From: an uncultured Pelagibacteraceae bacterium
GTDB lineage: Bacteria > Pseudomonadota > Alphaproteobacteria > Pelagibacterales > Pelagibacteraceae
Assembly: GCA_902561075.1 (NCBI GenBank)
Contig: CACEOC010000002.1
Location: 11,283-75,282, forward strand
DNA length: 64,000 nt
Direction: 5' to 3'
Positions 19,267 through 51,999 of the stretch are shown piece after piece. The notes beneath the pieces were generated by a model, which saw nothing but the letters and a program-made list of their open reading frames with translations, was not told the DNA's origin and made no database searches. How positions within the stretch are numbered: position 1 is the stretch's first letter; each line of letters opens with the position of its first letter. The position numbers and the translations under genes were made by a program.

Positions 19267-19395
19267 ATGTCAAAAAGATACAGTGGGAAATCATTTAAAG
19301 ACTCAAGTTTAATGAAGAAACCAAAATTAAATCTTAAAGAGAAAAGAAAGCTAAAAAAAGAAAAGAAAAAAAATTTAAATAAATTATCTAAATAA
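19267..19395 (+). CDS. Putative small very basic protein, 42 aa
   Basis: Not in ORF track; MSKRYSGKSFKDSSLMKKPKLNLKEKRKLKKEKKKNLNKLSK; ATG directly after fabI TAA, fills the gap. Confidence 0.55.
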   Translation: MSKRYSGKSFKDSSLMKKPKLNLKEKRKLKKEKKKNLNKLSK

Positions 19396-48579: not shown

Positions 48580-49232
48580 TGAATGAAGTTCAAAGAGCAA
48601 AAATAATATTAAAAACTCTTAACAAAATATATCCAAAAACACCTGTTCCATTAAAACACAGGAATATATTTACACTTCTAATATCGGTTTTACTCTCAGC
48701 ACAATGTACAGATTTAAATGTTAATAATGTAACAAAAAATATTTATCCTAAATACAATAAACCAGAACATTTTGTAAAACTTGGTAGAAAAAAAATTGAG
48801 AGACTTATAAAAAGAATTGGAATATTTAGAGTAAAGGCAAAAAGTATTTTTTTTCTTTCAAAGACCTTGTTAAATGAATATAGAGGAAAAGTACCTAAAA
48901 CTTTCGAACAACTAGAAAAACTTCCTGGAGTTGGGCACAAGACTGCAAGTGTGGTAATGTCTCAAGGTTTTGGTTTCCCCGCATTTCCTGTAGATACCCA
49001 CATTCATCGATTAGCTCAAAGATGGGGGCTTACTTCTGGAAAAAATGTAATTCAAACTGAAAAGGATTTAAAAAGATTGTTTCCAAAAAAGTCATGGAAT
49101 AAATTACATCTTCAAATAATTTATTACGGAAGAGAATATTGTAAAGCAAGAGATTGTTACGGTATTTCTTGTAAAATCTGTACGACTTGTTATCCTAACA
49201 GAATAAAACCAATTAAAACTAAGAAAGCATAA
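48579..49232 (+). CDS. nth: Endonuclease III
   Basis: LLSAQCTD, LPGVGHKTA, VDTH, C-terminal Cys cluster. Confidence 0.96.
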   Translation: MNEVQRAKIILKTLNKIYPKTPVPLKHRNIFTLLISVLLSAQCTDLNVNNVTKNIYPKYNKPEHFVKLGRKKIERLIKRIGIFRVKAKSIFFLSKTLLNEYRGKVPKTFEQLEKLPGVGHKTASVVMSQGFGFPAFPVDTHIHRLAQRWGLTSGKNVIQTEKDLKRLFPKKSWNKLHLQIIYYGREYCKARDCYGISCKICTTCYPNRIKPIKTKKA

Positions 49233-49233
49233 T

Positions 49234-50163
49234 ATGAAAATTTTAGGAATAGGGAATGCGATTGTAGATGTTATTTGTAAAGTAGATGATGAATTTATTT
49301 CAAAAAATAATCTAACAAAAAGTACAATGAAATTAATATTTGATGATAATGAGTTTGAAAATTTGTTATCAAATTTAAAAATAGAAAAAACTGTATCGGG
49401 TGGATCAATAGCAAATTCTATTGTAGGACTTTCTCAACTTGGTAATAAAGTAGGTTTCATTGGAAAGGTTAACGATGATGAGCTTGGTAAGAAATATGAA
49501 GAAGGACTTTTAAAAGAAAAAGTAAGTTATTTTTACTCAAAAAAAAAAGAGGAACTGCCAACAGGCACATGTCTAATTTTAGTTACACCGGACTCTGAGA
49601 GAACAATGTGCACCTTTTTAGGTACAGCAGGAAAAATTAATGAAAATGATGTTGATATCGATGCAATTAATAAAAGTGAAATAATATTTTTAGAGGGATA
49701 TTTGTGGGATGAAGGGGATCCAAAAAAAGCATTTGAAAAAGCTATAACTAATGCAAATAAAGTAGCAATGTCACTCTCAGATCAATTCTGTGTGGATAGA
49801 CATAAACCTCACTTTTTAGAATTAGTAAAACGTAAATTGGATATCACTTTTGCAAATGAACAAGAGATCATGTCACTTATAGATGCAAAGGATTTTAATG
49901 AAGTAATTGATTTTGCAAAGAGTTTAGGGAAACTTCTTGTGATAACAAGAGGAGAAAAAGGTGCTATAGCTATAAATAGTTCAGAAGTAAGTGAATGTGG
50001 AATTAAACAGGGCTTAAATATTGTTGATCTAACAGGAGCAGGAGACCTTTTTGCATCTGGATTTCTTCATGGATTTGTTAACCAGATGTCGTTAAAAGAA
50101 AGTTTAGAAAAGGGTACAGAAATGTCCTCAAAGGTTATTCAGCAAATTGGGGCTAGATTATAA
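49234..50163 (+). CDS. PfkB-family kinase (adenosine kinase-like)
   Basis: GNAIVD, SGGSIAN, ERTMCTFLG, DLTGAGDLFASG. Confidence 0.9.
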   Translation: MKILGIGNAIVDVICKVDDEFISKNNLTKSTMKLIFDDNEFENLLSNLKIEKTVSGGSIANSIVGLSQLGNKVGFIGKVNDDELGKKYEEGLLKEKVSYFYSKKKEELPTGTCLILVTPDSERTMCTFLGTAGKINENDVDIDAINKSEIIFLEGYLWDEGDPKKAFEKAITNANKVAMSLSDQFCVDRHKPHFLELVKRKLDITFANEQEIMSLIDAKDFNEVIDFAKSLGKLLVITRGEKGAIAINSSEVSECGIKQGLNIVDLTGAGDLFASGFLHGFVNQMSLKESLEKGTEMSSKVIQQIGARL

Positions 50164-50281
50164 ATTTTTTTCTTTTGAAGCTGCCTTTCCCTTTTTTTGG
50201 TTTAACAATTCTTGGTTTAAATTTCGTAGTGAATAAACTTTTTGCTATTATATTTTTTTTCTTTTTATATTTTGTAACCAT
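50153..50281 (-). CDS. arfA: ArfA-like alternative ribosome-rescue factor, 42 aa
   Basis: Not in ORF track; MVTKYKKKKNIIAKSLFTTKFKPRIVKPKKGKGSFKRKKFII; ungapped match to the E. coli ArfA core as I recall it ([29 protein letters not shown]); alternative ATG at 50284. Confidence 0.8.
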   Translation of the reverse strand: MVTKYKKKKNIIAKSLFTTKFKPRIVKPKKGKGSFKRKKFII

Positions 50282-50834
50282 CATTAACACTTTTTATAAA
50301 TTGATTATCACCGAATTTTTGAGATATTTTTCTCCTCAACCTATAAATATGAGTTTCAACGGTATGGGTTTCCAAACTTGAATTATGTCCCCAAACCTCC
50401 TTTTGAAGACTAGTGATAGGCATGCTTTTATGTGAGTTATTAAGATAAACTATTACTTCTACCTCTTTTTGAGTAAGCTTTAATGATCTTTCATTTTTAA
50501 TCAACTCTCTAGAATTTATGTTTAAAGAATAATTATTAATTTTTAAGTTGGATTGACCAGAATAATTATTTTTTAATAGAGATATATTTATTTTCTCAAG
50601 AAGTGAAGTTATTTTAAATGGTTTATTTTTAATAATAAGATGATTAATCTTGATTAATTTTTTGATTTTTTTATCTGAGATTAATAAATAGTTGCTATCT
50701 TCAACATCAATAATATTATTTAGTTCCTCAATTTTTGATATTTTTATAAGGATATAATTAATTTTTTCTCTTATTTCGTATAATATATCAAATAAAGTAT
50801 TAGAATTATAAATGATTAATTTTGATTTAAACAT
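50265..50834 (-). CDS. OmpR-type winged-helix regulator, CenR-like, degenerate receiver
   Basis: LTQKE...VWGHNSSLETHTVETHIYRLRRKI...GYKI effector domain; N-terminus lacks the acidic pocket. Confidence 0.8.
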   Translation of the reverse strand: MFKSKLIIYNSNTLFDILYEIREKINYILIKISKIEELNNIIDVEDSNYLLISDKKIKKLIKINHLIIKNKPFKITSLLEKINISLLKNNYSGQSNLKINNYSLNINSRELIKNERSLKLTQKEVEVIVYLNNSHKSMPITSLQKEVWGHNSSLETHTVETHIYRLRRKISQKFGDNQFIKSVNDGYKI

Positions 50835-50848
50835 ACCTAATTAATAAT

Positions 50849-51340
50849 ATGTTATTAGTACTTAAAAATAAAGAAACATTAAAATTAGATAGTTTTTCAT
50901 TTAAATGCTGTGTTGGAAAAAAAGGATTGAATAAATTCAAAAAAGAAGGAGATGGGACAACTCCAATCGGAACATTTGGACTTGGTAATATATATTACAG
51001 AAGCGACAGGGTATCAAAACCTGTTACAAATTTTAATTGTATAAAAATAAAAAAAAATATGGGTTGGTGTGACGATCCAAGTAGTAAATTTTATAATAAA
51101 TTAATCGATATAAAATTAAGTGCTAATAAAGAAAAGATTTACCGAAAAGATAATAAATATGACTACTTTTTAGTAATTAACTATAATAGAAAAAAAATTG
51201 TTAAAAATAAAGGTAGTGCAATTTTCTTGCATTTAACAAAAAATTTTAAAAGCACTGCAGGATGCATAGGTGTATCTCAAAAGGATTTTTTGATAATTGT
51301 TAAATTATTAAAAAAAAATAGTAAAATAAAAATATCTTAG
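50849..51340 (+). CDS. L,D-transpeptidase (YkuD-fold) family protein
   Basis: KKEGDGTTPIG, WCDDP, GSAIFLH...TAGC catalytic His/Cys. Confidence 0.85.
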   Translation: MLLVLKNKETLKLDSFSFKCCVGKKGLNKFKKEGDGTTPIGTFGLGNIYYRSDRVSKPVTNFNCIKIKKNMGWCDDPSSKFYNKLIDIKLSANKEKIYRKDNKYDYFLVINYNRKKIVKNKGSAIFLHLTKNFKSTAGCIGVSQKDFLIIVKLLKKNSKIKIS

Positions 51341-51999
51341 TTTCTATTTCCAAAAATTTTTGAACCTATTCTTAAAAATGATGCTTTATATTTTAAAGCT
51401 TTCAAATAATCATGAGACATACCCATGCTAAGATCTTTTAGGCTAAATTTGTCATTAAGAGATTTTAAATCAGAGAAATACTTATCAGAATCCTCATCAA
51501 AAGGTGGTAAGCACATCAATCCTAAAACATTCAAATTACTTTGTTTACAAAATTCAAGCAGATCCGATATTTCATCTGTCCTTATACCTGATTTCTGTGC
51601 TTCATTTGCTAAGTTAACTTGAATAAAAATATGCACCTTTTTATTTAAGTTTTTTTGCTCATTAGATATTTTCTGAGCAAGTTTTTTGCTATCGACAGAA
51701 TGTATATAGTCAAATATTTTTAGTGCTTGTTTGACTTTGTTTGTTTGTAGTTTTCCAATCATATGTAATTTAATTGAATTGTTTTTTTCTTTTATGAATT
51801 TCCACTTGTCACTAGCTTCCTGAACTTTATTCTCACCAAAATGTAAGTGTCCAAAATCTATTAAATTTGATATGTAGTCTATTTTAAATGTCTTCGATAC
51901 AGCAATGATTTTTGGATGATAGTTTGCTAATCCTAATTTTCCAATATTTTGTTTTATTTCTGATTGAATTTCGATTAAGTTTTTAATTGTTTGATGCAT
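51337..51999 (-). CDS. yggS: PLP homeostasis protein
   Basis: IAVSKT, FGENKVQE, HMIGKLQTNK, LSMGMS, RIGSKIFG. Confidence 0.96.
   Translation of the reverse strand: MHQTIKNLIEIQSEIKQNIGKLGLANYHPKIIAVSKTFKIDYISNLIDFGHLHFGENKVQEASDKWKFIKEKNNSIKLHMIGKLQTNKVKQALKIFDYIHSVDSKKLAQKISNEQKNLNKKVHIFIQVNLANEAQKSGIRTDEISDLLEFCKQSNLNVLGLMCLPPFDEDSDKYFSDLKSLNDKFSLKDLSMGMSHDYLKALKYKASFLRIGSKIFGNRN

Follow-up and report, generated by a model that had tools for sequence, protein, structure and literature searches.

A short, stop-terminated homolog of the ribosome-rescue factor ArfA in Pelagibacterales: a candidate back-up to trans-translation

The ribosome-rescue factor ArfA of Escherichia coli (YhdL; PF03889; PDB 5MDV, 5MGP, 5U4I, 5H5U, 7OJ0) meets the decoding centre and the switch loop of release factor RF2 with its N-terminal region, and its basic half lies in the mRNA channel (PMC5378476, PMC8012679), with the K33–S38 segment occupying the empty channel (PMC6299226, PMC5378476). 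A 2021 review describes ArfA as confined to some beta- and gammaproteobacteria (PMC8012679), and a 2024 survey found arfA in none of 2,376 alphaproteobacterial genomes, in most of which (2,022 of 2,376) ArfB serves as the back-up to transfer-messenger RNA (tmRNA) (PMC11633108). ArfB (YaeJ) fills the same physiological niche, but the two proteins are unrelated, ArfB carrying a GGQ catalytic domain of its own. Here we describe an arfA-like gene in a 64,000-nucleotide stretch of DNA (the window) from an uncultured bacterium of the SAR11 family Pelagibacteraceae. Judged from its sequence and that of its relatives, it rather probably encodes a minimal ArfA-family rescue peptide that is made by ordinary termination and acts as the sole back-up to tmRNA–SmpB.

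The frame lies on the minus strand, with an ATG start at 50284–50282 and a TAG stop at 50155–50153; other in-frame starts are an ATG at 50281 and, upstream, a GTG at 50290. The initial annotation of this DNA had reported a 42-residue minus-strand open reading frame (ORF) at 50153–50284. The ORF itself stands, but translation from the first ATG gives 43 residues. Its parts are as follows.

50153–50284, minus strand: arfA-like coding sequence, 43 codons plus a TAG stop, from the ORF list and its translation.
50210–50254, minus strand: N-terminal module N11–R25, equivalent to E. coli ArfA N14–R28 in the gapless alignment to ArfA chains.
50180–50197, minus strand: KKGKGS motif K30–S35, identical to E. 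coli ArfA K33–S38 and invariant in 30 relatives.
50153–50179, minus strand: short basic tail FKRKKFII plus TAG, its end matching residue 46 of E. coli ArfA.

Comparison with protein families and structures pointed to ArfA throughout. In a Pfam search admitting E values up to 10, ArfA (PF03889) was the sole family matched by the peptide, which narrowly passed the curated cut-off (25.8 vs. 25.5 bits, E 7.2e-6); a search with an ArfA model had been proposed in the initial annotation. A six-frame search of the genome with that model gave 24.4 bits, slightly under the cut-off. All 30 same-genus relatives match ArfA and no other family, with a best E value of 2.6e-8. These 30 homologs form alignment A1, which is anchored on the motif and gapless over 33 codons. 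The A1 profile retrieved six distinct sequences from all PDB chains, every one of them ArfA, with E values of about 4e-6 and a gapless match to E. coli residues 12–43, and hhalign against E. coli ArfA (MG1655 record) returned a probability of 91%. A BLASTP alignment with E. coli ArfA contains 17 identities in 36 positions (47%) and no gaps (E 1e-7 for the pair), and the homologous stretch is a gapless one of some 34–36 residues.

Sequence alignments of the two proteins, both of which are basic, pair N11 with N14, I13 with I16, K15 with A18, L17 with L20, F22 with F25, R25 with R28, and K28 with K31 of E. coli ArfA, followed in the C-terminal half by K30–S35 with K33–S38, F36 with Y39, and R38–K39 with R41–K42. 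The shared positions are therefore N14, I16, L20, F25, R28, K31, KKGKGS, an aromatic residue, and RK. The gapless alignment to the E. coli core that had been proposed earlier was reproduced, and every pairing that it listed holds, including the lysine at the position of A18. Within A1, N11 and L17 are invariant, and K15 and Y/F22 nearly so. The offset to E. coli ArfA is three residues, so that the 43-residue peptide corresponds approximately to E. coli residues 4–46. It covers almost precisely the segment of ArfA that takes on order when bound to the ribosome, the ArfA chains deposited in two cryo-electron microscopy entries being 45 and 46 residues long. These comparisons support the assignment of the SAR11 peptide as an ArfA-family homolog.

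Frames of 41–49 codons in sister genera and in a sister family carry the N-terminal module as N-P-I-A-K-x-L-R-T-P-K-F/Y-K, with KKKY replacing KKGKGSY, and possibly represent a divergent offshoot of the family. Because these lineages keep the module and lack GKGS, the N-terminal half is the most conserved part of the wider family. The variants lie at the following positions.

L059, 302–451: sister-lineage variant.
L060, 361–486: sister-lineage variant.
L061, 343–486: sister-lineage variant.
L062, 360–494, minus strand: sister-lineage variant.
L063, 323–457: sister-lineage variant.

Two database proteins (P0217 and P0259) have an ArfA-like core fused to a lysine- and glycine-rich C-terminal extension of 65–100 residues, in which Pfam sees ArfA only.

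Lysine-rich frames arise readily in A+T-rich DNA, and this one overlaps both neighbouring genes, as might be expected of a chance ORF in A-rich intergenic DNA that is no gene at all. We regard that explanation as refuted by the codon analysis, and its remaining probability as negligible. Column entropy across the 30 homologs is 0.47, 0.42, and 1.06 at codon positions 1, 2, and 3, and in the arfA-like frame synonymous divergence (pS) is 0.67 and nonsynonymous divergence (pN) 0.17, for a pN/pS of 0.26. The five other frames give ratios of 0.40 to 1.53 and are interrupted by stops in 8 to 30 of the 30 sequences per frame. Purifying selection is thus seen in the arfA-like frame only, and the motifs are invariant although synonymous sites are near saturation. 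The frame is kept in all 30 same-genus homologs, as the initial annotation had required of its reading, and each has a start codon 22–28 codons ahead of the motif and a protein length of 34–43 residues. A protein search of relatives detected the ORF in 31 of 36 same-genus genomes, and the A1 profile found the gene in 112 of 151 same-genus genomes and in 140 of 180 same-family genomes (those at least 85% complete). Hundreds of database clusters also match; among 1.84 billion cluster representatives scanned, 672 clusters at 50% identity match the profile with E values up to 0.001. Gene callers do predict the arfA-like gene in relatives. The arfA-like ORF is a genuine conserved protein-coding gene.

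The SAR11 gene differs from E. coli arfA in its architecture. The E. coli gene is an ORF of 72 residues yielding a mature protein of 52–55 residues, vs. 43 residues with a stop codon of its own in SAR11, and in silico the SAR11 gene lacks a hydrophobic tail and a KH motif as well as any hairpin of the RNase III or terminator type. In all 30 relatives the stop follows KKGKGS by 6–11 codons, most commonly by exactly 6 (16 of 30). A 251-nucleotide (nt) fold of the window revealed no hairpin beyond those of shuffled sequences (z = +0.78), whereas the same fold of E. coli arfA, used as a control, recovered its known long hairpin (z = –2.34). In the 198 nt that begin at the motif, the strongest 60-nt hairpin has, across the 30 relatives, a median energy of –10.2 kcal/mol, vs. 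–10.1 kcal/mol for shuffles, at inconsistent positions, and a promoter and terminator scan of 49200–51400 gave a site count not above shuffles and none at or near the ORF. The earlier description of a stop soon after the motif, without a long tail or a GC-rich hairpin, is thereby borne out, with tails of 6–11 residues and hairpins no stronger than shuffles.

By comparison, 25 ArfA genes from a phylum-wide sample of beta- and gammaproteobacteria have tails of 17–49 codons and hairpins of –18.6 to –39.7 kcal/mol, which mostly begin 20–55 nt past the motif and are seen even in regions of 0.32–0.36 G+C. Pfam ArfA matches were also obtained in seven alphaproteobacterial genomes outside the SAR11 family in a class-wide sample, and three of these genes were inspected.

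L049, 1468–1734, plus strand: canonical alphaproteobacterial ArfA, about 0.53 G+C, family f141.
L053, 1288–1767, plus strand: canonical alphaproteobacterial ArfA, about 0.53 G+C, family f141.
L057, 1321–1656, plus strand: canonical alphaproteobacterial ArfA, about 0.53 G+C, family f141.

These belong to the same Pfam family and share the N-P-[IV]-A ... KGKGS core of the SAR11 peptide, with a KH motif in tails of 26–62 codons. L049 and L053, the two examined by folding, contain within the ORF a terminator-like G+C-rich stem and then a run of U, and so keep the classical non-stop design that the SAR11 gene does not have. Since other alphaproteobacterial ArfA genes have long tails and an in-ORF hairpin, the SAR11 design departs from the pattern even within its own class. 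Canonical ArfA genes are thus found in other alphaproteobacteria despite the zero reported for the class in the 2024 survey.

Two other small factors invite comparison. BrfA of Bacillus subtilis is described as a small RF2-dependent factor whose basic tail occupies the mRNA channel (PMC6881298, PMC8012679); it shares with ArfA the non-stop mRNA and the KH motif (PMC8012679), neither of which the SAR11 gene has. ArfT of Francisella tularensis, a factor of about 40 residues, ends in a stop codon of its own that is preceded by neither a terminator nor an RNase III site, has a KGKGS-like basic motif at its C-terminus, and makes tmRNA dispensable (PMC6299226). ArfT was reported to lack detectable ArfA homology and to work with RF1 or RF2 (PMC6299226), whereas the SAR11 peptide is a detectable ArfA homolog. 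With ArfT compared by its description, the Pfam scan (E up to 10) gave no membership in an ArfT or KGG-repeat family, only ArfA. The likeness between the two is one of design and not of descent, and ArfT offers a precedent for a stop-terminated factor of 40 residues that is free of non-stop control and relaxed in its choice of release factor.

These observations support a gene that is encoded already short, without the classical non-stop device, although the short tail needs to be read with care. At 29% G+C the chance of a stop within 6 codons is about 0.35–0.40 per sequence, a point that counts against reading much into the stop. With an early stop this common by chance, a short tail in a single genome means little, and the argument rests on the missing hairpin and on the 30 diverged relatives, all of which keep the stop (pS 0.67).

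The same base composition, in which a nearby in-frame stop is not rare, leaves some room for an ArfA homolog over which trans-translation keeps control by means other than a hairpin, its product being tagged unless tmRNA is limiting. Such truncation could come from 3'-end formation or endonucleolytic cleavage in the last codons, from collision with the transcript of the convergent kinase gene, with which the 3' end overlaps by 11 nt, or from stalling on A-rich lysine codons. Non-stop mRNA is the source of all ArfA and BrfA factors characterised so far (PMC8012679), an arrangement through which, according to reviews, tmRNA holds them off; for ArfT, too, truncation within the final codons was left open by its authors (PMC6299226). 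Nevertheless, no hairpin or terminator rises above shuffles in 30 relatives, and the stop falls within 6–11 codons in every one despite their synonymous divergence, so that we consider gating of this kind unlikely. Assembled metatranscriptome contigs cover the ORF patchily; one mismatch-free 200-nt contig from an RNA library (50008–50207) runs across the stop, but it is unstranded and might stem from carried-over DNA, and so gives a hint only.

We next consider the ribosome-rescue setting. The initial annotation had proposed looking for ssrA, smpB, and arfB. Complete relatives have SmpB and a two-piece tmRNA of the alphaproteobacterial type, whether or not they carry the arfA-like gene. Complete relatives were used for this purpose because the window's own assembly (contig 2 of 33, 890 kb) is 70% complete; SmpB was not found in it and tmRNA gave a weak partial match only, which at that completeness is uninformative. 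ArfB was not found in the order: 117 of 120 Pelagibacterales genomes that are at least 95% complete have exactly two genes with an RF-1 domain, both of about 350 codons, and since in the four genomes checked these are RF1 and RF2, ArfB was counted as not found. Nor was it found in genomes that have no arfA-like gene (L041, L042, and L044). The RF2 of the window genome keeps SPF, GGQ, and the switch-loop tryptophan (IGWG). The prfB gene encoding it (L034, 2440–2510, minus strand) has a classical +1 frameshift site, CTT TGA C after AGGAG, about 24 codons from the ATG.

On the proposed mechanism, the trigger would be a ribosome at the 3' end of a non-stop message. The peptide's C-terminal half, which is polybasic (K21–K40, including KKGKGS), would enter the vacant mRNA entry channel of the 30S subunit, placing the N-terminal module (N-x-I-A-K-x-L ... 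F/Y-K-x-R) at the decoding centre, where it would hold a class-I release factor, most probably RF2 as expected from E. coli ArfA, in the open form, and the peptidyl-tRNA would be hydrolysed. The active peptide would most likely come from ordinary termination and not from non-stop mRNA tagged by tmRNA, because its own stop follows directly after the core and no in-frame hairpin or terminator is present. In SAR11 the arfA-like peptide would be the only back-up to tmRNA–SmpB, since ArfB was not found. Ribosome binding, the release-factor partner, rescue activity, and independence of tmRNA are what we infer from these sequence comparisons.

Conservation of the critical residues gives a mixed picture of the release-factor contact. 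The equivalents of N14, I16, L20, and F25 are conserved, the RF2 tryptophan is kept, and by a hand count from the BLASTP alignment the channel segment has no fewer basic residues than that of E. coli ArfA. Several points weigh against a rescue peptide of the E. coli kind. In E. coli ArfA, the L19/L24/F25 patch binds Trp319 of RF2, and A18T blocks RF2 activation and inactivates ArfA (PMC5378476); in the SAR11 peptide the A18 position is a nearly invariant lysine, L19 is replaced by S, D, N, or E, and L24 by K, so that only F25 of the patch is kept. Many relatives start 3–4 residues before the conserved asparagine and have no counterpart of the N-terminal 10 residues of the E. coli protein. E. 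coli ArfA shorter than residue 47 is inactive (PMC5378476), and this minimum of about 47 is not reached, since the peptide stops at the position matching residue 46 and the majority of relatives at that matching 44. The Pfam margin, moreover, is just 0.3 bits over a matched stretch that is mostly the basic C-terminal half, and an NCBIfam search of the peptide returned no match. The A18K replacement, the altered patch, the short N-terminus, and the sub-minimal length lower our confidence that the same release-factor contact is made. When the peptide (A1) and the genome's RF2 (A2) were modelled as a complex, the score was 0.02, a value that speaks neither for nor against an interaction; ArfA binds RF2 only on the ribosome.

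The same replacements (A18K, a polar residue for L19, and L24K), together with the N-terminal residues missing in many relatives and a length under the E. coli functional minimum, would fit a polybasic peptide that binds the ribosome or RNA without release factor-dependent rescue, for example in hibernation or in protection of idle ribosomes, and that is either derived from ArfA or convergent on its tail. About a quarter of genomes manage without the gene, and sister lineages have KKK for KKGKGS with the module kept, which we take as drift within the family. A generic basic tail, however, would not explain why the N-terminal module (N, I, L, P, F/Y, R) is the most conserved part, and the peptide matches ArfA only, in Pfam and in the PDB; with ArfB not found in these genomes, there is also room for a back-up factor. 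We therefore assign a low probability to a role outside rescue.

The arfA-like gene is accessory and occurs in about three genomes out of four. In about a quarter of same-genus genomes no arfA-like match was found anywhere, and the flanking regulator and kinase genes are kept. In the complete genomes L041, L042, and L044 (at about 2050–2130) the regulator stop is followed by the kinase end within about 20–30 nt, and the site is empty, which makes this single locus cleanly polymorphic for presence or absence of the gene. A different genus of the family has it between a photolyase-related gene and a sodium:solute symporter gene.

Relatives of the gene also occur in phages. A tblastn search of phages with the 43-residue peptide returned nothing, probably owing to low-complexity masking, and a longer database relative found three.

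L045, 1489–1665, plus strand: gp30 of Pelagibacter phage HTVC027P, 58 residues, stop-terminated, adjoining the small terminase gene.
L046, 771–923, plus strand: unannotated 50-residue ArfA-like ORF of Caulobacter phage Cr30, stop-terminated.
L047, 789–914, plus strand: 41-residue ArfA-like ORF of Roseobacter phage CRP-212, in another frame under the annotated end of gp38.

HTVC027P gp30 shares the core NPVAK ... PKKGRGSF and a stop 8 codons past the motif, but differs in a 25-residue N-terminal extension and scores 20.2 bits, below the Pfam cut-off. It was identified as an ArfA-domain protein in a 2025 paper and is reported there to be expressed early and late in infection (PMC12753301). Short stop-terminated homologs in three phages, presence or absence at a fixed site, and different loci in different genera would all suit an accessory gene exchanged with phages, whose main role lies in phage–host conflict (rescue after mRNA cleavage, or abortive defence). 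The window copy is flanked by no phage genes, its neighbours being the regulator, the kinase, an L,D-transpeptidase, and a YggS-like protein, and it keeps the same position throughout the genus, in line with vertical inheritance and losses; conflict as the main role is thus quite improbable. It concerns use and not mechanism, and is compatible with a minimal rescue peptide made by ordinary termination. A broader proposal, possible but rather doubtful, is a distinct class of "mini-ArfA" common to SAR11 and to marine and freshwater alphaproteobacterial phages. Such a class would be made constitutively by ordinary termination and be the only back-up to tmRNA. Its altered surface, with lysine at the A18 position and polar residues for the hydrophobic patch, could contact release factors in another way than E. 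coli ArfA does, possibly RF1 as well as RF2 in the manner of ArfT, and the phage copies would make rescue a point of contest in infection.

The genes on either side of the arfA-like ORF in the window are the following.

50265–50834, minus strand: upstream OmpR-type winged-helix regulator, 189 residues, Pfam Trans_reg_C only (residues 116–187).
49234–50163, plus strand: convergent PfkB-family kinase gene (Pfam PfkB, E 2.6e-45).

The regulator stop lies at 50267–50265, so that its last 20 nt are shared with the start of the arfA-like ORF, and the kinase stop at 50161–50163 places the final 11 nt of that gene within the 3' end of the ORF; both overlaps agree with the initial annotation, which had put the start inside the end of the regulator and the 3' end over the kinase stop. 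No receiver domain is detectable by Pfam in the first 115 residues of the regulator. Other neighbours encode, by Pfam, a YkuD L,D-transpeptidase, a YggS-like PLP protein, and an endonuclease III-type glycosylase. Close database relatives carry the label Candidatus Pelagibacter. In same-genus relatives with enough flanking sequence, the arfA-like gene always comes directly after the regulator, and the kinase is convergent in most.

Co-transcription with the regulator is plausible, given the 20-nt overlap. The earlier suggestion of co-expression with an envelope-type regulator holds insofar as the tight overlap is conserved in the genus, but not as a functional link, which we rejected as unsupported: the regulator persists without the gene in about a quarter of the genus, and in another genus the gene is elsewhere. 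E. coli arfA (L048, 2432–2650, minus strand) is also just downstream of a regulator gene (zntR), with its 3' end over the convergent mscL, probably by coincidence. Elsewhere in the window, a second lysine-rich ORF of 42 residues (19267–19395, plus strand) directly follows fabI and overlaps the next, convergent gene by 8 nt; the genome-wide search with the ArfA model gave no match there.

The initial annotation had called the gene hidden, which overstates the case, as relatives are already labelled ArfA by IMG and by precomputed Pfam assignments. Their JGI/IMG name is "stalled ribosome alternative rescue factor ArfA", with Pfam PF03889, and NCBI lists them as hypothetical. A full-text literature search for ArfA and Pelagibacter found no paper on the host gene. 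Novelty is tempered by these automatic annotations, and the evidence presented here is in silico. What the locus offers is an ArfA relative of roughly minimal active length, with a normal stop codon, in one of the ocean's most abundant bacterial groups. If the peptide is active, gating by tmRNA would no longer count as indispensable to the ArfA family, and a natural minimal ArfA of 34–43 residues would be at hand for structural work. An active peptide would also help to answer how streamlined cells handle non-stop ribosomes.

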